Assembly (NCBI GenBank): GCA_017435905.1
Contig: JAFSEB010000071.1
Coordinates: 8-64,007, forward strand
Reading direction: 5' to 3'
DNA length: 64,000 nucleotides
DNA from: Clostridia bacterium
Lineage (GTDB): Bacteria > Bacillota > Clostridia > Christensenellales > CAG-138
Shown here: positions 655 to 26,540 of the stretch, one piece after another
Layout of the letters: each line of letters opens with the position of its first letter
Position numbering within the stretch: position 1 is the first letter of the stretch
Program-made: the position numbers and the translations under genes
The notes under the pieces: generated by a model
Seen by the model: the letters and a program-made list of their open reading frames with translations, nothing else
What the model was told of the DNA's origin: nothing
Databases searched by the model: none

Positions 655-1857
655 TTACACCTTGTAGGGCAAAGATATCTTGCCCATGATCACAGGCTGC
701 CTTGCGCCGGTCACCGCAGGGAGGGTGTTGGGCATGCCCCGTACCGCACGGTCCGCAAGCAGGGCGAATGCCACGGCTTCCTTCGCATCGCTGTTGAAGC
801 CGAGATCCTCCTGTACACGCACCCTGACGCCATAGGGTTCAAAGCGCTTTTCCATCATGGCCACAAGGGTCTTGTTGTAGCTGCCGCCGCCGCCCACGAT
901 GATCTCCACCGCTTTGTGCTTGGGCAGAATGTAACGCTCATACGCATCCGCAATGGACCATGCTGTCAGGTCGGTCACGGTGGCGACCACATCGTCATCG
1001 CAGAGGCCGAGTTCCTGCTGCATGGCAAGGATATCCCTTGTATACTGCACGCCGAAATGCTCACGGCCGGTGGATTTGGGCAGGGGCTGGCTGTAGTAGG
1101 GATCCGCCTGCAGCTTGCTGAGCAAGGCTTCGGATACCTTGCCCCGAGCGCCCCGGGCGCCGCCTGCATCGTAGGTCTCCCTGCCGTCCGTCAGCGCACT
1201 GACCACCGCATCGATGATCATGTTGCCGGGGCCGGTATCAAAGGCGAACACCGCTTCGGGGCCGGCAGATGCAGGAAGCACCGTTACATTGCCGATGCCG
1301 CCGATGTTCTGGAGGAGGATGGTCTCATCCTGCCGGCGGTAAAGAAGATATTCGGAAAAGGGCACAAGGGGCGCACCCTGACCGCCCTCCGCAATATCCG
1401 CCACGCGGAAATCGGAAACGGTGAGAATACCCGTGCGCTGTGCGATCACGGAGCCTTCGCCGATCTGCACGGTGTAACGGATGGGATAACCGTCCCGGTC
1501 ATCGGGATCGGGCGAATGCCAGATGGTCTGGCCGTGGGAGCCGATGGCATCGATATCCTCGGGCTTCATTCCCGCCTTTTCGATGACGGAAAGCGCTGCC
1601 TTTGCATACAGCTCGCCGAGAAGGAAACTCATGTAGCCCACATCGTCAACGGGAGCGGTATCCGGTCGGAACAGCCTGAAGATCTTTTCCCTGACTGCCG
1701 GCGGAAAGGGCTTGTTCTCAAAAGCAACAAGCCTGACTTCCGGACGCTCTTCGGAACCGGAAAACTCCACAAGGGCAGCATCCACACCGTCCACGGAGGT
1801 ACCGGACATCATGCCCACAACAAGCCGTTTTTCCTTATTCTTTACAAGTTCGTACAC
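655..1857 (-). CDS. anmK: Anhydro-N-acetylmuramic acid kinase
   Basis: GMMSGTSVDGVD, GSHGQT, DFRVADIAEGGQGAPLVP, NIGGIGN, FDTGPGN, KSTGREHF, KEAVAFA motifs. Confidence 0.96.
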   Translation of the reverse strand: MYELVKNKEKRLVVGMMSGTSVDGVDAALVEFSGSEERPEVRLVAFENKPFPPAVREKIFRLFRPDTAPVDDVGYMSFLLGELYAKAALSVIEKAGMKPEDIDAIGSHGQTIWHSPDPDDRDGYPIRYTVQIGEGSVIAQRTGILTVSDFRVADIAEGGQGAPLVPFSEYLLYRRQDETILLQNIGGIGNVTVLPASAGPEAVFAFDTGPGNMIIDAVVSALTDGRETYDAGGARGARGKVSEALLSKLQADPYYSQPLPKSTGREHFGVQYTRDILAMQQELGLCDDDVVATVTDLTAWSIADAYERYILPKHKAVEIIVGGGGSYNKTLVAMMEKRFEPYGVRVRVQEDLGFNSDAKEAVAFALLADRAVRGMPNTLPAVTGARQPVIMGKISLPYKV

Positions 1858-1860
1858 GCT

Positions 1861-2772
1861 TCAGTTCCCCTTTCCTGCTTCGATGGCTTCTGCAAGGCGT
1901 CCGCCGCAGCGGTCGAGGACCGCCTGTGCCGCCTGCGCATCAAGACCCGTTTCGATCATAAGAATGGCAAGCTTCACATGGGAATTTGCCTTGACGATAT
2001 ATTCGCCCGCCGTTTCGCTGTCAACGCCGGTGGCGTGGCAGATGAGCCTTCTTGCACGGTCTTCAAGCTTTTTGTTGCTGGCCTTCAGATCCACCATCAG
2101 GTTGCCGTACACCTTGCCCATCTTGACCATGGAGCAGGTGGTGAGCATGTTGAGCACCATCTTCTGGGCGGTGCCGGACTTCATGCGGGTGGAGCCGGAG
2201 ATGACTTCGGGACCGACCTTGGGGGCGATGGTCACATCGCACACCTTTTCAAGCTTGGAGTTTGCATTGGTGCAAAGGCCGATGGCCGCGGCGCCAAGCT
2301 CTTTTGCGTGCTCCACCGCCGCAAGCACATAAGGTGCGCTGCCGCTGGCAGTGATGCCCACAACGGCATCCTTTTCATTCACGTGCAGCTCATCGATGAT
2401 GGCAATGCCGTCTTCCCTGCTGTCCTCGCAGCCTTCCACGGGGCGGCGGAGGGCAATGTCGCCGCCGGCGATGTAGCCCTGTACCATATCGGGATCTACA
2501 CCGAAGGTAGGAAGGCATTCGGACGCATCGAGAACGCCGAGGCGCCCGGAGGTGCCTGCACCAAGGTAGATCAGCCGTCCGCCGTTTTCAAGGCGGGGGT
2601 AGATCATATCGATCGCCTTGGCGATGTTTTCCGCTTCCGCACCCACCGCACCGGCAACAAGAGCATCCTGCCTGTTGATCATGGTCACCATATCGATGGT
2701 GGAGCAGCGGTCGATGCCCTTGGTATCTTCGTTGACGCTTTCCGTGGCAAGACCTGCCAGATATTTATCCAT
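1861..2772 (-). CDS. murQ: N-acetylmuramic acid 6-phosphate etherase
   Basis: GAGTSGRLGVLDASEC, GPEVISGSTRMKSGTAQKMVLNM, GNLMVD motifs; GGAGG RBS. Confidence 0.97.
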   Translation of the reverse strand: MDKYLAGLATESVNEDTKGIDRCSTIDMVTMINRQDALVAGAVGAEAENIAKAIDMIYPRLENGGRLIYLGAGTSGRLGVLDASECLPTFGVDPDMVQGYIAGGDIALRRPVEGCEDSREDGIAIIDELHVNEKDAVVGITASGSAPYVLAAVEHAKELGAAAIGLCTNANSKLEKVCDVTIAPKVGPEVISGSTRMKSGTAQKMVLNMLTTCSMVKMGKVYGNLMVDLKASNKKLEDRARRLICHATGVDSETAGEYIVKANSHVKLAILMIETGLDAQAAQAVLDRCGGRLAEAIEAGKGN

Positions 2773-2804
2773 AAGTAACGTACCTCCGAAAGGTTGTTAA
2801 AATT

Positions 2805-2834
2805 AGCCTATCCCATTGTCATGCAGTCTGTCAA
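2805..2834 (-). promoter_or_regulatory. Putative sigma-A promoter of murQ-anmK-GNAT
   Basis: TTGACA-18-TAGGCT on minus strand upstream of the murQ RBS. Confidence 0.5.
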
Positions 2835-2948
2835 CAGAGAGAAAAAAGAATTTGTGCAAAATAAAACGTTCCCTGTTCACGCAAATCCCTCACCCGTATG
2901 CAATTCCTGAATTTTCTGAAAACAATAGCTTTTTTTCATGTTTTTCTG

Positions 2949-2977
2949 TAGACAGATACATACGTAAATGGTATACT
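2949..2977 (+). promoter_or_regulatory. Putative sigma-A promoter of hydrolase/ABC operon
   Basis: TAGACA-17-TATACT with TG extension; implies a ~280 nt leader. Confidence 0.6.
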
Positions 2978-3262
2978 GTACATGATTTGTCAGACCACTT
3001 GCTGTGGCTGATCAACACACTTTCACACACAGCAATATTTGTTACCTTTCCGACTTGGCGTTGTATCATTCGAACACGGTGCAGCACACTCGCACCCGAT
3101 ATCGGCGGCAGGCTTTTGTTTTGCCACCACACAGCGGCAAGGTACTTTGTATGAACGCCGGGCAGTGACCTTTGTGCGCAGGCACCCTCTTTCTTTTTTG
3201 ATGCAGCTAACGCAACCACCATGCTGCCCGGCTTCATTTTACAGATCAACAGGAGGTCATTT

Positions 3263-4300
3263 ATGAACATCGATCCCAAGATGCTCGACTCCATCCTTGA
3301 AAAATACCGTGCGGAAGGCTACTTCCCCGCTGCGGTATGTCAGGTTTTCGATAAGGAAAAAACGCTTTACCACAACTGCGTCGGTCCCGTGGAAAAGGAC
3401 ACCTGGTTCGATCTTGCTTCCGTCAGCAAGATCGTGTGCACCACCATGCTGCTTTTCGCCATGGAAGAAGGCCGCGTTTCCCCCGAAGACAGGGTGCTTT
3501 CCCGCCTTCCCGTCAACGGCCCCCTTTCCGTTACCCGTGAAAGGCTCAGGGATGTCACGGTGTTTCAGCTTCTGACCCACACCTCCGGCATCGTGCCCTG
3601 GTTCCCCTTCTACAGCGACGGGCGTGATTTTTACACCGTTCTTGAGCGTGTTCTTTCCTCCACCCCCGTGGAGACGGGCATGGCTTACAGCGACCTCAAT
3701 TTCATGCTCCTCGGCCTCATTTTCACCCATGTGACGGGGCTCACCCTCCGTGAAGGTCTTGAGCATTACATCCGTCCCATCGTGGGCGAAGGCATGGCTT
3801 ACGGCCCCGTTGAGCCTTCCCTCTGCGCACCGAGCTGCTACGGCAACCAGATCGAACAGCGCATGTGCGCCGAACGCAATCTGACCTTTGACGGCTGGCG
3901 CGAAAACGGCGTCGAGGTGCGTGGCAGCGTCAACGACGGCAACGCCTTCTATTATTGGAACGGCGCCAGCGGCCACGCAGGCGTGTTCGCCACTTCGGAA
4001 GCACTCAGCCGCCTTTGCATGTTCTATCTGAACACCGAAAAGCCCATCTTCCTTAGGGCGATGGAGACCACCCTCAACGAGCGGGGTCTCGGCTTTGACA
4101 AGACCGTCACCTTCCCCGAGGGCTGCGGACACACCGGCTTCACCGGCACCGGCATGTGGATCAGCCGCAGGAACGGCATCGGTGCGGTAACGCTGACCAA
4201 CAAGTTCCACCGCCTTGAAGGCGCCCCCGGCAACACCAACGAGTTCCGCCGGGCCATCCATTACACGCTGCTTGGGCAGGAAGCGCCCATCGTGCAGTAA
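3263..4300 (+). CDS. Serine hydrolase, beta-lactamase/PBP fold (AmiE-like muropeptide amidase candidate)
   Basis: FDLASVSK (SxxK), LLTHTSG, YSD, GHAG, GHTGFTG; AGGAGG RBS before ATG 3263. Confidence 0.85.
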   Translation: MNIDPKMLDSILEKYRAEGYFPAAVCQVFDKEKTLYHNCVGPVEKDTWFDLASVSKIVCTTMLLFAMEEGRVSPEDRVLSRLPVNGPLSVTRERLRDVTVFQLLTHTSGIVPWFPFYSDGRDFYTVLERVLSSTPVETGMAYSDLNFMLLGLIFTHVTGLTLREGLEHYIRPIVGEGMAYGPVEPSLCAPSCYGNQIEQRMCAERNLTFDGWRENGVEVRGSVNDGNAFYYWNGASGHAGVFATSEALSRLCMFYLNTEKPIFLRAMETTLNERGLGFDKTVTFPEGCGHTGFTGTGMWISRRNGIGAVTLTNKFHRLEGAPGNTNEFRRAIHYTLLGQEAPIVQ

Positions 4301-13298: not shown

Positions 13299-13650
13299 TG
13301 GTGGAGACGAGGGGAGTCGAACCCCTGTCCGAAAACCCGTCCACAAGACTTTCTACGAGCGTAGCCGCTGTTTTGTCATTCCCTCCATCCTGCCCCCAAC
13401 GGCAGGGTCAGGACTTTGGTAGCTTCATAAGATCCCACCTGCGGCAAAGCTTACGCAGGCTGGTTCCCCACATTATTGACGCCCGTTGACCCGGTCGTGG
13501 GCAACCGGGGACGGACGGTCACTGCTTAAGCAGCGACGGGTACGAAATTAGATTCGTCAGTTAATTTTTAATTCCCGTTTTTAACGAAGCACGGGGCTTC
13601 GGCTCGCTTATCCGGCTTCAGCGATCCCCGTCGAAACCATTTACGCCCCC
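13299..13650 (-). ncRNA. ssrA: tmRNA; predicted tag (A)DESNFVPVAA
   Basis: 5' GGGGGCG..GGUUUCGAC; 3' GACAGGGGUUCGACUCCCCUCGUCUCCACCA; G3-U acceptor pair; tag frame 13558-13526 ending GCU GCU UAA; adjacent to smpB. Confidence 0.97.
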
Positions 13651-20598: not shown

Positions 20599-21384
20599 AT
20601 GAAAAAAGTGCTCATTGTTTTCCTGATCACAGCGTTTTTACTGCTCACCGCCTGCAAAGGGGATGAGCCTTCTTCCGTGCCTGCGGATATTACCGCATCC
20701 CCTGCACCGGAAGAAACGCCGGTATCCGGTACAGCGCTCTCTACAGAGACCGCCGCTCCCGCTTACGGCAAAAATGCCGCCGCTTCCGTTTCCGATACCG
20801 CCGCACTCTTTTTTGAGGGCGATGAGGGGCTGACCCTTTACGGCGCCGTTGCCTACGAAAACACCGGCGATTGCCCCATTGTGATCGACAGCGCCGTTTT
20901 CACCTTCACGGCGGAAGGCATTCCCATCGAGCACAGCTTCTCCCCTGCCTTTTCCGAATACACGGTGCTGCTGCCGGGCGAAACATCCTTCCTGACCGCA
21001 TGGCTCGTGCAGGATGAAGAAACGCCCTTCACCGCCGAAACGGAGGTCAGCATGGCAGCGACCCTGACCGCCCGCCGGGCAGAGACGGATATGCGCACGC
21101 TCCTTCTTCTTGACAACCTGTACCTTGCGGACAACTACCCTGCCTTTACCACCCTTTCGGGGCGCATCCGCACGGAGGGCGCAAGCTGCGGCATGAATGT
21201 GATCCACACCGGTTTTTATGACGAAGGCGGCAGCTTCCTCGGCTCCTGGTATTTCACGAAAAACACGCTGCTCGAAAGCGGCGAAGCCAAGGATTTTGTG
21301 GCACAGATGCACGGCTTCCCCATCAAAGGGCTTTCCGAAAAAGCACATGAGATCAAAGCCATCGGCTTTGGCTTTACGCTGTAA
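20599..21384 (+). CDS. Lipoprotein, FxLYD-like beta-sandwich domains
   Basis: Lipobox LTAC; ENTGD and GFYDEGGSFLG motifs. Confidence 0.7.
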   Translation: MKKVLIVFLITAFLLLTACKGDEPSSVPADITASPAPEETPVSGTALSTETAAPAYGKNAAASVSDTAALFFEGDEGLTLYGAVAYENTGDCPIVIDSAVFTFTAEGIPIEHSFSPAFSEYTVLLPGETSFLTAWLVQDEETPFTAETEVSMAATLTARRAETDMRTLLLLDNLYLADNYPAFTTLSGRIRTEGASCGMNVIHTGFYDEGGSFLGSWYFTKNTLLESGEAKDFVAQMHGFPIKGLSEKAHEIKAIGFGFTL

Positions 21385-21393
21385 GAAAAACAT

Positions 21394-21433
21394 AAAAGAC
21401 CGGATGCGGTTCAACCTGCATCCGGTCTTTTTT
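21394..21433. terminator. Bidirectional intrinsic terminator
   Basis: aaaagaccggatgc-ggttcaacct-gcatccggtcttttt. Confidence 0.85.
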
Positions 21434-21436
21434 CAT

Positions 21437-21627
21437 GCCGAAAACTGCCCGCGGCCCACCCTCGCAAAAGGATCGGCGATATGGTGGTACAAGTAACGAT
21501 AACAATGCACATGTTACTGTGCCGGGAATTAAAATGCAGTAAACGTGTCCCCACACGTAGTCATGCCCTGCGTCATTCTCACGCAGCAGAGATCTCGCCC
21601 GCCTCCTTCGGCTACACGCTTCTCGGC
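21437..21627 (-). ncRNA. Candidate structured RNA in the 3' region of the DIP1984-family gene
   Basis: Ends pair (GCCGAGAA/UUUUCGGC), further nested long-range helices and three internal hairpins; fills the space between stop codon and terminator. Confidence 0.6.
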
Positions 21628-21628
21628 T

Positions 21629-22081
21629 TTACAGCAGTTCCGTTGTCCAGTTTGTCTCCTGAATAAGGGCATCAAGCTCCCGAAGCTCCTTGGAAAGGGC
21701 ATCGATCTGCTTCTGAAGCTGCCTAACATCCACGGTGCTTTTGATCTTGATCTCGCCCACGGTACGGCGGCTCACAAGGGCGCTGGCCTCATCGGAAAAC
21801 TGCCGCAGAATGCCGTTTTTGCCGGCAAGGCAATCCCTGCGTGCAAGCAGAGCGGTCAGGCTTTCACCCTTTACCACAGTCTCGCTGTTGGTGCGGTTGA
21901 TGCGGCCGATGAGCAATTCAAGCGCCGCATAGGCATCATCGAGCTCTTTGAGAAGAAAAGCGGGATCTTCCGCCGGGGTCTCCCCTTCCTGCACCTGTGC
22001 GTTGTTCATCAGGCGGTTTCCAAGCTGGCGGATCTTCGTTTGGAGCTCTGCACGCTCCATGAGTGCGTTTGCAAGTTTCAT
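21629..22081 (-). CDS. DIP1984-family protein (helical, function unknown)
   Basis: MKLANALMERAELQ, NAQVQEGETPAEDP, RINRTN, IQETNWTTEL signature; AAAGGAG RBS. Confidence 0.88.
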   Translation of the reverse strand: MKLANALMERAELQTKIRQLGNRLMNNAQVQEGETPAEDPAFLLKELDDAYAALELLIGRINRTNSETVVKGESLTALLARRDCLAGKNGILRQFSDEASALVSRRTVGEIKIKSTVDVRQLQKQIDALSKELRELDALIQETNWTTELL

Positions 22082-22099: not shown

Positions 22100-23338
22100 T
22101 TAATTGATCTTGCGGAGCAGGTCGCCTTCCTTCACCGGCTCGCTGCAGCCGATGTAAAGGATCTGCTTCGGGTGCGGCGCAGCCTGCTGCATCTCCCCTG
22201 CCTCATTGCGGATGCCGCTGACAGCAAAGCTTCTGCCCACATCGGAGGGTGACAGGATGGAAAGCGTTTCCCCATCCTGAAAGCGGTTGCGCTGGGCAAT
22301 GTGTGCGGTTTTGGTCGCTTCATCGTACCCGAGCACCACGGCGCTGATGCGTGCATCGGAAACATAGTCGGCGCTTTTGGGCGCCTGCATATCCTTGCCG
22401 TCGCTGCCAAAGGCAAAGCCCGTGGTGTAGGGGCGGTGGCTTGCGTAGTCAAGCTCCTTCACGATATGCGGCGGCACGGGGGCGGCAGGATCCTTTGCAT
22501 AAAGATCGAGCGCCATGCGGTAGGCATTCACCACCGTTGCTACATAGGCGATGGACTTCATGCGGCCTTCGATCTTCAGGCTGCATGCGCCCGATGCAAT
22601 GACCTCCGGCAGGTGCTCGATGAGGTTCATATCCCTTGCATTGAGGATATAGGTGCCAAGTTCATCCTGCTCGATGCCGAAATATTCGCCGTCACGGCCA
22701 CGCTCACGGAGCTCATAAGTCCAGCGGCAGGGCTGCGCACATTCGCCCCGGTTGGAATCGCGGCCGGCGATGTAGTTGCTCAAAAGGCAGCGGCCGGAAT
22801 AGGAAACGCACATGGCACCGTGAATAAACAGCTCGATCTCAAGGCTTTCGGGCAGCGCTTCACGCATTGCCTTTACCGATGCAAGGGGCAGTTCCCTTGC
22901 AAGCACGATGCGCTTGATGCCGGCTTCATGCCAGAAAAGCGCAGCCTCGCTGTTGAGGGTATTTGCCTGCGTGCTCAGGTGCAGCGGAATCTCCGGCACC
23001 GTATCCCTTGCCACACGGATAACGCCCGGATCGTTCACGATGAGCGCATCGGGGCCTGCGGCACGAAGTTCCCTTAAAAGCTGCGGCAGGGCCTTGATGT
23101 CGTTATCCCGTGCAAAGGCGTTGCAGGCAACATAGACCTTCTTGCCCCGTTCATGGGCATATTCGCAGGCTGCTTTCAAGGAATCTGCGGTAAAGTTATC
23201 CGCATAGTTGCGAAGGCTCATGGTCTCCGCACCGAGATAGACCGCATCCGCACCGAAGCGAAAGGCGGTCACAAGGCGTTCCATATTGCCTGCCGGCGCA
23301 AGAAGCTCCGGCAGGCCGTTTTTCATTTCGTTCATCAT
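22100..23338 (-). CDS. U32 family protein (TrhP-like tRNA hydroxylation)
   Basis: PELLAPAG, HLSTQAN, HGAMCVSYSGRC, NRGECAQPCRW, LKIEGRMK; ATG overlaps the mltG stop (exact start uncertain). Confidence 0.92.
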   Translation of the reverse strand: MMNEMKNGLPELLAPAGNMERLVTAFRFGADAVYLGAETMSLRNYADNFTADSLKAACEYAHERGKKVYVACNAFARDNDIKALPQLLRELRAAGPDALIVNDPGVIRVARDTVPEIPLHLSTQANTLNSEAALFWHEAGIKRIVLARELPLASVKAMREALPESLEIELFIHGAMCVSYSGRCLLSNYIAGRDSNRGECAQPCRWTYELRERGRDGEYFGIEQDELGTYILNARDMNLIEHLPEVIASGACSLKIEGRMKSIAYVATVVNAYRMALDLYAKDPAAPVPPHIVKELDYASHRPYTTGFAFGSDGKDMQAPKSADYVSDARISAVVLGYDEATKTAHIAQRNRFQDGETLSILSPSDVGRSFAVSGIRNEAGEMQQAAPHPKQILYIGCSEPVKEGDLLRKIN

Positions 23339-24507
23339 TGTGCTGCATCCCATAGATCTTTATAAAGTGCTACGTTTTCGTTGTGTTCCTCAAGGGTCTT
23401 TGCATAGGCGTTCTCGCCGGTAGCGGGATCCTTCAGACAGAAGTAGAGATAGCCTTCTTCCAAGAACTCCTCGCTCGGATAAAGCGCCGCCTTGATCGCC
23501 CTTTCACCCGGATTGCAGATGGGGCCGAGGGGCAGCCCTTCATACACATGCGTGTTGTAAAGGGAGGGATCCTGCATTTCCGCTTCGGTATAGGTGAGCT
23601 TGTCCGTGGTATCAAGGATGTACTTGAGGGGCGCATCGGACTGCAGGCGCATCCCTTCCTTCAGGCGGTTATGGAATACTGCGGATACCTTTTCAAAGTC
23701 ACCTGCCGCCTTCGCTTCCTTCTCGATGAGGGATGCAAGGGTGACGACCTCATCGAGGGTCATACCAAGTTCCTGTGCCCTTGCGGTATACGCATCGGAA
23801 AAGACGTTGCGGAAGCGCACAAGAAGGCGTGTGATGATGGACTGGGCGGACTCATCGGTATAGATCTCGTAGGTATCCGGGAAAAGATAACCTTCAAGAA
23901 GATAATCCCTTGCCTGCTTCGGGTTTTGTTCGATGGCATTGAGGAAGGAATAATCAAAAGCGCTGCCATCCCTGCAGAGGGAAAGGAACTGTTCTTCGTT
24001 TTCAAGCACGCCGAGAGAAACGAGTTTTTCCGCAATGCCTTCCACCGTGATACCCTCTGCGGTGGTGAAGCGCATGGTGGTACGGGGCGGATTGCCCTCG
24101 CAGATGATGTCAAGGATCTGCCCGACGCTCATGTTGCGGGAAAGCACATACGTACCGGCCTTCAGCTTGCTGGTTTTGCCGGTGAAGTCAGCATAGATCT
24201 TAAAGACGGTCTTGCTGGCGATAAGACCCGGCAGCTGTTCCCCGTTTTCATCCGTTCCGCCGGCCTTGTGAAGGATGCCGGCGATGGCGGATGCACCGGA
24301 GTTGGATTTGATGGTCACGGTGATGGGTGTGGCATCGTTGGGATCCACCGGCGCAAAGAGCTTTTCATAGGCGATCTTTGCTCCCCCCACAAGGATGAGC
24401 GCACAAAGCCCCACGCTCAGAAGCGCCACCACCAGCGGACGCATCACCTGCCATGCACGCCTGAAGTCCGGGTTTTCCCGGTTATTGCCGCCGTTTCGGT
24501 ATTCCAT
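23335..24507 (-). CDS. mltG: Endolytic transglycosylase MltG
   Basis: N-terminal TM; LEGYLFPDTY, LASLIEKE, FHNRL..GMRLQSD, YNT...GLPLGPICNPG. Confidence 0.94.
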   Translation of the reverse strand: MEYRNGGNNRENPDFRRAWQVMRPLVVALLSVGLCALILVGGAKIAYEKLFAPVDPNDATPITVTIKSNSGASAIAGILHKAGGTDENGEQLPGLIASKTVFKIYADFTGKTSKLKAGTYVLSRNMSVGQILDIICEGNPPRTTMRFTTAEGITVEGIAEKLVSLGVLENEEQFLSLCRDGSAFDYSFLNAIEQNPKQARDYLLEGYLFPDTYEIYTDESAQSIITRLLVRFRNVFSDAYTARAQELGMTLDEVVTLASLIEKEAKAAGDFEKVSAVFHNRLKEGMRLQSDAPLKYILDTTDKLTYTEAEMQDPSLYNTHVYEGLPLGPICNPGERAIKAALYPSEEFLEEGYLYFCLKDPATGENAYAKTLEEHNENVALYKDLWDAAQ

Positions 24508-24872: not shown

Positions 24873-26540
24873 TCAGTCGATCTCGATGATGATAGGAACG
24901 ATCATCGGGGTGCGTTTGGTTTTGTTGTAAAGGTAGTTCTTCAGGGAAGAACGGATGTTGTTCTTGATGGAAGACCATTCGCTACGGTGGGCGCTCTCGA
25001 ATTTGGATGCAAGATCCGTTACGAGGTCACGGGCTTCCTGTACGAGCTCCTCGGAGTTTTTCAGGTACACAAAGCCCCGGGAAATGATCTCCGCCGGTGC
25101 CACAAGGGCGCCTGTCTTTTTCCGAAGCAGGATGACGGCGGTAAAAAGACCTTCCTCCGCAAGCAGCTTCCTGTCGCGGAGCACCGCATCGCCGATATCG
25201 CCCACGCTGTTGCCGTCGATCATCAGGCTGCCTGCCTGCACGGAACCGTTGACACGGATGCTGTTTTTGTTGAGCTCGATCACATTGCCGATCTCGGATA
25301 CGATGATGTTGTCGCCAGGAACGCCCATCTCCTCCGCAAGCTCCGCATGCTGGTAAAGGTGCCTTGCCTCGCCGTGAACGGGGATGAAGAATTTGGGCTT
25401 TGTGAGCGTGAACATGAGGCGAAGCTCCTCACGCCTTGCGTGACCGGAAACGTGCACATCCGCCATGGGATCGTAAACCACCTTTGCGCCCTTCTGGTAG
25501 AGCTGGTTGATGACCCTTGAAACGGCGATCTCGTTGCCGGGAATGGAGGAAGCGGAAATGATGACCGTATCCCCCTTGCCGATGTTCAGGCGGTGGGATG
25601 CGTTTGCCATGCGGAACAAACCGCTCATGGGCTCGCCCTGGCTGCCGGTGGTGATGACGCACACCTTCTCGTCATCGATGCGGCGCAGCTTTTCCACCTC
25701 TACGATCTTCTCTTCCGGAATGCTGAGATACCCAAGCTCTCCCGCTACCTTGGCGATGTTCACCATGCTCCTTCCCTGGAAGCAGATGACACGCCCATGG
25801 GCGATGGCCACATCGGCGATCTGCTGGATGCGGTAAATATTGGATGCAAAGGTCGCCACGATGACACGCCCCTTTGCGATCTCAAAATAATGCTCGAAGG
25901 TCTTGCCGATCTCCCGTTCCGATTGGGTATGGCCCGCAAGTTCCGCATTGGTGGAATCGCTCATAAGCGCAAGCACGCCCTTTGCGCCGTAATGGGCAAA
26001 GCGGGCCACATCGATGGGCTCGCCGTCAAGGGGCGTATAATCCACCTTGAAATCGCCGGTATGGATCAGCGTGCCCACAGGGGTGGTGACGGCAAGTGCC
26101 ACGGCGCCGGCGATGGAATGGCTCGTTTTGATGAATTCCACCGTGAAGCAGCCAAGCTGGATTTTATCGCCGGGGGCGATGCAGCGAAGGTCTGCGTTTT
26201 TGATCTTTGCCTCGCTGAGCTTGTGCTCGATCAGTGCGGTGGTGAGCCTTGTGCCAAAGACGGGCACATTGAAGTTTTTGAGCGCATAGGGGAGCGCACC
26301 GATGTGGTCTTCATGCCCGTGGGTGATGAGAAAGCCGCGAAGCTTTTCCGCATTTTTTTCAAGATAGGACATATCCGGGATCACAAGGTCGATGCCGGGC
26401 ATATCATCATCCGGGAAGATGAGGCCGCAGTCCACGACCACGATATCCTTCCCGTATTCGATCACAGTCATATTTTTGCCGATCTCACCCACGCCGCCAA
26501 GGGGGATGATCTTCAGCTTTGCTTTGGATCTTGATGCCAA
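24873..26540 (-). CDS. rnj: Ribonuclease J
   Basis: PLGGVGEIGKN, THGHEDHIG, HTGDFK, TGSQGEP, HVSGH, PVHGE. Confidence 0.97.
   Translation of the reverse strand: MASRSKAKLKIIPLGGVGEIGKNMTVIEYGKDIVVVDCGLIFPDDDMPGIDLVIPDMSYLEKNAEKLRGFLITHGHEDHIGALPYALKNFNVPVFGTRLTTALIEHKLSEAKIKNADLRCIAPGDKIQLGCFTVEFIKTSHSIAGAVALAVTTPVGTLIHTGDFKVDYTPLDGEPIDVARFAHYGAKGVLALMSDSTNAELAGHTQSEREIGKTFEHYFEIAKGRVIVATFASNIYRIQQIADVAIAHGRVICFQGRSMVNIAKVAGELGYLSIPEEKIVEVEKLRRIDDEKVCVITTGSQGEPMSGLFRMANASHRLNIGKGDTVIISASSIPGNEIAVSRVINQLYQKGAKVVYDPMADVHVSGHARREELRLMFTLTKPKFFIPVHGEARHLYQHAELAEEMGVPGDNIIVSEIGNVIELNKNSIRVNGSVQAGSLMIDGNSVGDIGDAVLRDRKLLAEEGLFTAVILLRKKTGALVAPAEIISRGFVYLKNSEELVQEARDLVTDLASKFESAHRSEWSSIKNNIRSSLKNYLYNKTKRTPMIVPIIIEID

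Follow-up and report, generated by a model that had tools for sequence, protein, structure and literature searches.

Described systems that come close to the pair considered here include Rsr (Ro60) with the YrlA Y RNA and SmpB with transfer-messenger RNA (tmRNA). The pair lies in a 64,000-nucleotide (nt) stretch of a Clostridia bacterium genome (contig JAFSEB010000071.1; hereafter the window), in which a gene of the DUF6847/DIP1984 family is followed on the minus strand by a structured RNA, which we refer to as the DIP1984 RNA. Rsr and YrlA resemble it in that a dedicated protein gene stands beside its RNA and the ends of the RNA pair in a closing stem. YrlA further contains an internal tRNA-like domain that includes a T-arm, and such an arm was counted in 58 of 91 DIP1984 RNAs. 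However, the DIP1984 protein is a helical DUF6847 protein of 150 amino acids (aa) and not a Ro ring, and its RNA appears to be joined to the 3' end of a messenger RNA (mRNA), possesses pseudoknots and a G-rich strand, and matches no Y RNA in Rfam. The window's copy, moreover, is without the T-arm, so the tRNA-like module that would be looked for in a Y RNA is not found there. An identity as a Y RNA working with Rsr was also rejected from context, as no TROVE/Rsr gene (PF05731) was found in the window's own genome (G000, 93.75% complete).

SmpB and tmRNA offer a second parallel, with a protein of ~150 aa, a pseudoknot-rich RNA and genes that are often neighbours, and tmRNA likewise combines a T-arm with a D-loop-like GG without a D-stem. 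In contrast, the DIP1984 RNA lacks an acceptor stem, a CCA end and a tag reading frame, the two protein families are unrelated, and a tRNA or tmRNA identity was rejected following ARAGORN searches of four loci, which returned no such gene. The genome's canonical tmRNA is located elsewhere in the window (13299-13650, minus strand; tag peptide DESNFVPVAA, ARAGORN). A looser resemblance exists to OLE with OapA/B/C, raiA, ROOL and GOLLD, which are conserved and complex bacterial RNAs of obscure chemistry that emerged from comparative genomics and are tied to partner genes without an assigned function. Unlike these, the DIP1984 RNA is without an Rfam match, is coupled one-to-one to a single small gene and occurs both on chromosomes and on plasmids, and it is much shorter than OLE, ROOL and GOLLD. 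Lastly, the guide RNAs of TnpB and IscB are also structured RNAs of 150-250 nt situated at or just past the 3' end of the partner gene and on the same strand, and they travel with it on mobile DNA, whereas the DIP1984 protein matches no nuclease, and its RNA is single-copy, lacks transposon ends and repeats, and displays no guide-like variable 3' segment.

The DIP1984 RNA is a previously undescribed family of structured RNAs, ~170-200 nt in length, located directly 3' of the DUF6847/DIP1984 gene and on the same strand, and we have very little doubt that both the family and its coupling to this gene are real. A DNA search of 151 genomes from the same taxonomic family returned three long matches, all from the same genus, which align with long invariant blocks, and the post-stop regions of 31 same-family genomes all contain the same blocks in the same order (31/31). 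A covariance model of the RNA (R1) matches the window at 21446-21617 (118.3 bits, E about 1e-30), and the gap occupied by the RNA is single-copy in G000. Across 80 loci from GTDB species, gathered with a protein alignment, R1 matches 79 (E 3e-46 to 5e-7), in each case on the strand of the gene and just 3' of it, and a second run matched 99 of 100 sources. The single miss among the 80 (L043) has 275 nt before the end of its contig, and in its close relatives the RNA begins ~90 nt past the stop codon.

Searches of whole genomes with R1 further indicate that gene and RNA are present or absent together. Among the 151 same-family genomes the protein occurs in 37 and the RNA in 36, with one match each and all within the 37; the remaining protein-positive genome gives a match (E 8e-11) in a search confined to its locus, and no RNA was detected in the 114 protein-negative genomes. 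In a sample of 151 genomes from the phylum, the protein is found in 8 and the RNA directly after the gene in 7 of these, the eighth containing a divergent copy with the 5' and 3' blocks of the family, and R1 detected no RNA in the 143 protein-negative genomes. One member of the genus has neither the protein nor the RNA in the 8 kilobases searched after its U32 gene. An earlier annotation made from the window's letters alone (hereafter the first-pass annotation) had described a two-part module appended to the rnj-mltG-U32 operon, and this description agrees both with the joint presence and absence of gene and RNA and with the position of the unit, which lies directly behind the U32 gene in G000 and in its closest relative (G124). 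No neighbouring gene is conserved with the pair, the commonest neighbour cluster being present at 14 of the 80 loci.

The unit of gene and RNA occurs on chromosomes and plasmids in at least four phyla. The protein is encoded on 371 plasmid records, 342 of which are from Acinetobacter, and at six plasmid loci the best R1 match is always just 3' of the gene (Mycobacterium branderi, E 2e-20; Paracoccus versutus, E 1e-15; Streptomyces, E 1e-15; Picosynechococcus, E 3e-11; and, more weakly, Enterococcus faecium, E 6e-5, and the A. baumannii plasmid pAC12, E 0.009). The RNA copy in Acinetobacter retains helices P3 and P4, the GGCG loop, and the UUACA and ACC blocks (see below), and is without the G-rich tail. 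Gene and RNA are additionally paired in genome bins labelled as Bacteroidota, Synergistota, Desulfovibrionaceae, Aeromonadales and one archaeon, for which binning errors are possible, and Deinococcus radiodurans, included in our control panel, carries the protein. A scan of viral contigs (IMG/VR) identified 8 full-length homologues, with the RNA present at 4 of the 7 loci scanned, 150-530 nt from the stop codon. A contig labelled Candidatus Methanoprimaticola (L105), binned to an archaeon, carries the full module (E 2e-23), which could reflect gene transfer or a binning error.

Type III toxin-antitoxin systems (ToxIN) are also two-part modules of a protein and an RNA, common on plasmids and patchy in distribution, and several of the above observations would suit a module akin to toxin-antitoxin or defence systems, with an RNA that neutralises the protein or is licensed by it. 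The distribution is patchy and accessory-like (37/151 genomes of the family and 8/151 of the phylum sample), plasmid carriage is frequent, and gains and losses affect gene and RNA jointly. Yet the DIP1984 RNA forms a single complex fold downstream of its gene, rather than tandem repeats upstream of it, and no tandem repeats were found in 21437-21627; for the protein, searches of the defence (PADLOC) and phage libraries returned neither a defence or toxin model nor any other match. In addition, the module is rare on viral contigs, and there is no sign that the protein is toxic. A type III antitoxin identity was rejected on the repeat and PADLOC results, and the broader explanation, which would amount to one particular kind of protein-RNA binding, appears to us very improbable.

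The case for a conserved fold is very strong and rests on comparison, the folding energy of the single sequence being unremarkable. Folded alone, the RNA (192 nt) has a z-score of -0.73, with 46 of 200 shuffled sequences folding as well or better, and the value of -3.59 obtained when the terminator is included arises because the terminator was then part of the folded sequence; the initial impression that the region contains more structure than a 3' untranslated region (UTR) needs consequently gains no backing from energy. MAFFT and RNAalifold alone recovered just 9 pairs, because hairpins were misaligned by 2-3 columns between subgroups, and helices were therefore annotated by hand on an alignment of 19 sequences, from which 12 of the 31, comprising two divergent subgroups and two isolated sequences, were left out because they resisted alignment. 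R1 comprises five nested helices over 186 positions and 27 pairs, and Infernal was then used to realign all matches, yielding 97 distinct aligned sequences in which 36 pairs in 8 helices were evaluated. Standard pairs fill 90.5% of cells, compared to 65.1% when shuffled (none of 500 shuffles attains 90.5%, though as the aligned sequences are related these counts are not probabilities) and 35-44% when the partner strand is slid by 1-3 columns. For covariation, the score is 0.606, versus 0.200 shuffled and 0.06-0.08 slid; the pairs ranking highest in corrected mutual information are helix pairs; and compensatory changes, with both sides altered, are seen in 33 of the 36 pairs, in an alignment fitted to the nested helices of R1, which inflates their pair counts, and with both pseudoknots lying outside the model. 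The first-pass annotation had put forward covarying structure downstream of homologous genes as one test of its proposal, and it is such structure that R1 and the compensatory changes reveal.

Much of the secondary structure suggested at the outset is upheld by this comparison (Table 1). The pairings GAAGGA/UCCUUU (P3), CUGCGU/ACGCAG (P5) and ACGUGU/ACACGU (P6) are each supported by covariation. A further helix, read initially as GGCG (21603-21600) with CGCC, is genuine in a different register, as covariation favours GGCGA/UCGCC and leaves GGCG as an internal loop, inside which mutual information hints at a C-G pair (0.95 of pairs standard). The closing stem P1 lies outside R1 and has a duplex energy of -13.5 kcal/mol in G000; 51 of 97 relatives form a closing duplex at least as stable as -10 kcal/mol, compared to 27.5% of mismatched flank pairs, and P1, although correctly recognised in the window, is on this account a common but optional element of the family. 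Two other proposed elements, the pairing CGUG-ua-GCC/GGCCGCG and a third hairpin (ACAGUAAC/GUUACUUGU), do not survive comparison among the 97 distinct relatives, since their cells are paired in 48.3% of cases versus 47.1% when shuffled, and 24 of 500 shuffles attain the 48.3%. Conversely, two H-type pseudoknots had been overlooked, one joining UCUC to the GAGA loop of P5 and the other joining the GGGA loop of P6 to UCCC.

Table 1 Positions, within the window, of the DIP1984 gene and RNA, the elements of the RNA, and the flanking genes and terminator
Feature	Position	Strand	Basis or remark
RNase J gene	24873-26540	minus	
YceG/MltG gene	23335-24507	minus	
Peptidase U32 gene	22100-23353	minus	
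DUF6847/DIP1984-family gene, 150 aa	21629-22081	minus	Pfam, NCBIfam, PDB 3kdq homologue
Whole structured RNA, P1 5' strand to P1 3' strand	21437-21627	minus	begins 2 nt past UAA stop
P1 5' strand (closing stem) GCCGAGAA	21620-21627	minus	duplex energy
5' junction, conserved, ends in GUA	21613-21619	minus	high information content; GUAGC block continues into P3
P3 5' strand	21604-21612	minus	95% of cells paired, 9/9 pairs compensatory
Internal loop GGCG, conserved, facing GA at 21473-21474	21600-21603	minus	alignment
P4 5' strand GGCGA	21595-21599	minus	92.1% paired; GC/AU/UA/CG swaps
Pseudoknot 1, 5' strand UCUC	21589-21592	minus	83.8% paired, 2/4 pairs compensatory, outside search model
P5 hairpin; loop GAGA (21577-21580) makes pseudoknot 1	21568-21586	minus	91.9% paired, 5/5 compensatory
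P6 hairpin; loop GGGA (21548-21551) makes pseudoknot 2	21543-21558	minus	90.7% paired, 3/3 compensatory
Pseudoknot 2, 3' strand UCCC	21524-21527	minus	81.8% paired, 4/5 compensatory, outside search model
G-poor segment with spaced YAC motifs, ends in conserved ACC block	21483-21523	minus	no conserved pairing found
P4 3' strand UCGCC	21475-21479	minus	pairs with GGCGA
P3 3' strand	21464-21472	minus	same helix statistics as P3 5' strand
G-rich 3' strand GAGGG-Y-GGG-N4-GGG, nearly invariant	21445-21463	minus	invariant alignment columns
P1 3' strand UUUUCGGC	21437-21444	minus	duplex energy
Intrinsic terminator-like hairpin, A and U runs on flanks, common to convergent gene	~21394-21433	minus	sequence, folding

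It might be argued that the region has no dedicated function, being either an ordinary 3' UTR with chance pairings or a missed coding extension through the UAA stop codon. The low single-sequence z-score would suit the former, and the DIP1984 frame is indeed open for 84 codons past the UAA in this genome (21374-21628, minus strand), through the RNA and the terminator. However, chance pairings do not account for conservation and covariation across phyla, and the 84-codon opening is not conserved in 109 relatives and for this reason is probably due to chance. Open frames after the stop codon have medians of 20, 15 and 15 codons and extend to at least 60 codons at 20 of 109 loci in each frame, so frame 0 is no longer than the others, in agreement with the first-pass annotation, which saw no credible open reading frame (ORF) in the RNA. 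Read-through or a missed ORF was rejected on these grounds, and we find an absence of dedicated function scarcely credible.

The RNA also appears to be new. Rfam 15 gave no real match in the RNA region of the window at E <=10, where the two overlapping matches (Thr leader, 18.3 bits against a gathering threshold of 55, and STnc500, 14.1 bits against 44) are both anchored on the terminator hairpin, nor did it match this region at E <=1 in six relatives, half of which belong to distant phyla; the novelty that had been suspected of the RNA thus holds with respect to Rfam. Literature searches on DUF6847, DIP1984 or septicolysin, a legacy name discussed below, turned up no mention of it, though supplementary tables of small RNAs might hold a local name. 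The possibility of a riboswitch or 5' leader was rejected, given that a terminator and a convergent gene come next and that downstream genes are not conserved.

Beyond its helices, the RNA contains single-stranded blocks that are close to invariant. In the YAC segment the frequency of AC is 0.123, compared to 0.039 in the remainder of the RNA, and its 509 AC dinucleotides exceed the 323 +/- 14 of shuffled sequences; their spacing shows peaks at 2-3 and 6-7 nt. The G-rich 3' strand is shared by Mycobacterium, Streptomyces, Paracoccus and Picosynechococcus, and is absent in Acinetobacter. The suggestion, in the first-pass annotation, of a similar segment after DIP1984 genes in other bacteria proved sound, as the blocks UUACA, GCA and UACUACC are conserved in relatives. 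Three potential roles for the G-rich strand were examined by eye only, and none is supported: pairing with the ACC block fits some sequences, but there is no compensation in close relatives differing at the Y position; pairing with the anti-Shine-Dalgarno end of 16S rRNA fails for the C variant; and a G-quadruplex would have just three clean G-tracts in the tail.

The T-arm hairpin, of the type found in tRNAs, was counted in relatives after six misaligned rows had been dropped, and is accompanied by a GG in the linker before P6 in 55 of the 58 rows that have the arm, versus 13 of the 33 without it, a count that ignores relatedness. The same-genus alignment displays a perfect hairpin of this type, which the window's copy has lost, and the linker GG is likewise missing from the window's RNA. 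As judged from the alignments, the joint pattern of T-arm and linker GG could reflect a contact resembling that of the tRNA elbow.

Features such as these may be thought to favour an autonomous RNA, namely a trans regulator, ribozyme or ligand binder that borrows the DIP1984 promoter and does not have the protein as its partner. The features of the RNA are complex, highly conserved and tertiary in appearance, its invariant single-stranded blocks might serve for target pairing or make up an active site, and a tRNA-like elbow could address machinery that recognises tRNAs. Such an RNA should nevertheless sometimes occur without the gene or beside other genes, which was never the case in 302 whole-searched genomes, and no third gene is conserved; we consider it improbable.

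We propose instead that newly made DIP1984 protein attaches to the RNA at the end of the transcript that encodes it, the two forming a ribonucleoprotein module, and we would give this proposal even chances of being correct. The RNA would be made as a 3' extension of the DIP1984 mRNA, co-transcription being suggested because the core begins a median of 13 nt past the stop codon (25 nt or less at 76 of 99 loci), because a pattern scan of the window found no promoter-like site on the minus strand between gene and RNA, and because a terminator comes after. The protein translated from this transcript would then bind the RNA, probably contacting the invariant single-stranded blocks, and the two may act as one accessory module that has spread horizontally. 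Strict one-to-one coupling, the absence of a third conserved gene, and joint gain and loss all argue that protein and RNA depend on each other, and the recurrence of the RNA after the same gene family in several phyla suggests that they work together. With regard to expression, three contigs (85-88 nt, 90-99% alike) from one RNA library lie on 21449-21591 and none on the coding part; these constitute weak evidence, because DNA can occur in such libraries, and as the run held 0.07 of the sampled words of the stretch, missing coverage there proves nothing.

The main rival is a purely cis-acting element of the 3' UTR, with no stable protein-RNA particle, in which the folded RNA would protect the DIP1984 mRNA or time its decay, for example by blocking an exonuclease, or alternatively would sense a ligand or the terminating ribosome and thereby set the amount of protein. 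Many of the observations are compatible with this explanation: the RNA invariably lies 3' of the gene and shares its strand, at the short median distance given above, it is never found without the gene (0/114 and 0/143 protein-negative genomes), no promoter-like site separates the two in the window, P1 extends into the stop codon region at several loci, and a terminator often follows, a terminator-like site being present after the RNA at 34 of 96 loci compared to 9 of 96 control windows. However, ~60 near-invariant positions, two pseudoknots and a tRNA-like arm, maintained over at least four phyla, far exceed the needs of known 3' stabilisers. Moreover, distances of 64-694 nt at 12 of 99 loci, together with those on viral contigs, are tolerated, which speaks against mechanisms bound to the stop codon and leaves other forms of cis action unaffected. 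We regard a purely cis-acting element as a serious rival, though less likely than the ribonucleoprotein. At two of the distant loci the RNA lies 694 nt (L120) and 336 nt (L109) past the stop codon, where something has apparently been inserted between gene and RNA.

Membership of the protein in the DUF6847/DIP1984 family is secure, with full-length matches above curated cut-offs to Pfam PF20935 (DUF6847; 169.2 bits, cut-off 27) and NCBIfam NF038048 (172 bits, cut-off 70), and with PDB 3kdq as a homologue (E 3e-25, or 2.7e-40 with a profile). The family, for which there is a crystal structure and no assigned function, is represented by 3,007 clusters (50% identity; E <=0.001, out of 1.84 billion representatives), nearly all of ~150 aa, and no recurrent fused forms were found, the 7 singletons probably being artefacts of gene calling. 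Several observations nonetheless count against a ribonucleoprotein formed by this protein and its RNA. Searches of domain libraries returned no known RNA-binding domain, and the translation is slightly acidic (21 K+R versus 23 D+E, counted by hand). Two genomes carry a second DIP1984 paralogue without an RNA of its own, and no RNA match was obtained at 3 of the 7 viral-contig loci, one of which has just ~300 nt downstream of the gene. Finally, as noted, action in cis explains equally well why the RNA keeps its place after the stop codon.

A more ambitious form of the proposal is that protein and RNA represent a new class of bacterial ribonucleoprotein, which horizontal transfer has carried across at least four phyla and onto hundreds of plasmids, and in which the RNA combines a mimic of the tRNA elbow with YAC-repeat and G-rich strands that the protein reads. 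The elbow mimic would engage the ribosome, RNase P or tRNA-modifying enzymes and would be dispensable in some lineages, such as that of the window, and the protein would read the invariant YAC-repeat and G-rich strands. As a joint claim this remains tentative, and is clearly less probable than binding of the RNA by the protein as such.

New structured RNA families conserved across phyla are rare, and earlier families of this kind have led to new biochemistry. Both the RNA family and the connection drawn here to a protein family without an assigned function are, on present evidence, new; the DUF6847 family gains a concrete handle in the form of a cognate, elaborately folded RNA always attached to it, and the link, which we draw from comparison of sequences, could be put to direct test. 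It also bears on the small plasmids of Acinetobacter baumannii. Some records of DUF6847/DIP1984 genes carry the legacy label 'septicolysin'. Cholesterol-dependent cytolysins, from which the label derives, are proteins of ~500 aa with a thiol-activated cytolysin domain, and a cytolysin identity was rejected for the DIP1984 protein, which at 150 aa has DUF6847 as its only real Pfam match at E <=10, plus weak coiled-coil noise. Published lists nevertheless repeatedly include the plasmid 'septicolysin' of A. baumannii as a pore-forming virulence factor, a label taken from the annotation name alone (PMC5559437). Should the ribonucleoprotein class be real, this virulence label would misname an RNA-binding protein. 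Behind the 'septicolysin' gene of pAC12 (L122), an unannotated stretch of 496 nt (2963-3457) contains a variant of the RNA.

With respect to the locus itself, the order along the minus strand is RNase J, YceG/MltG, peptidase U32, DUF6847/DIP1984, RNA and terminator, with 18 nt separating the U32 stop codon from the DIP1984 start and a gap of 191 nt after the UAA of DIP1984 as the site of the RNA. The gene layout and coordinates first reported for this region are correct, including the gap and the terminator hairpin after it, although this hairpin is absent from the list produced by our pattern scan. Two loci provide a different arrangement: in L127 (G165; 791-3241, minus strand) two DIP1984 paralogues flank a gene of 434 aa, with the RNA after the last paralogue only, and L129 (G255) has the same layout. 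The 434-aa gene of L127 has a weak, sub-threshold match to DUF2325, and genes of 434 aa and 437 aa, found upstream in two lineages, show no relation to each other. The neighbour cluster shared by 14 loci corresponds to one Oscillibacter/Lawsonibacter-like group, with gyrA upstream and RNase H after the RNA, and in the group L044-L056 (e.g. L048, 1962-2591, plus strand) a long ORF call for RNase H crosses the RNA spuriously. On the other side of the window's terminator, the convergent ORF (20599-21384, plus strand; 261 aa) matches no family in Pfam or NCBIfam, and its N-terminus, a hydrophobic stretch followed by a cysteine, resembles that of a lipoprotein.

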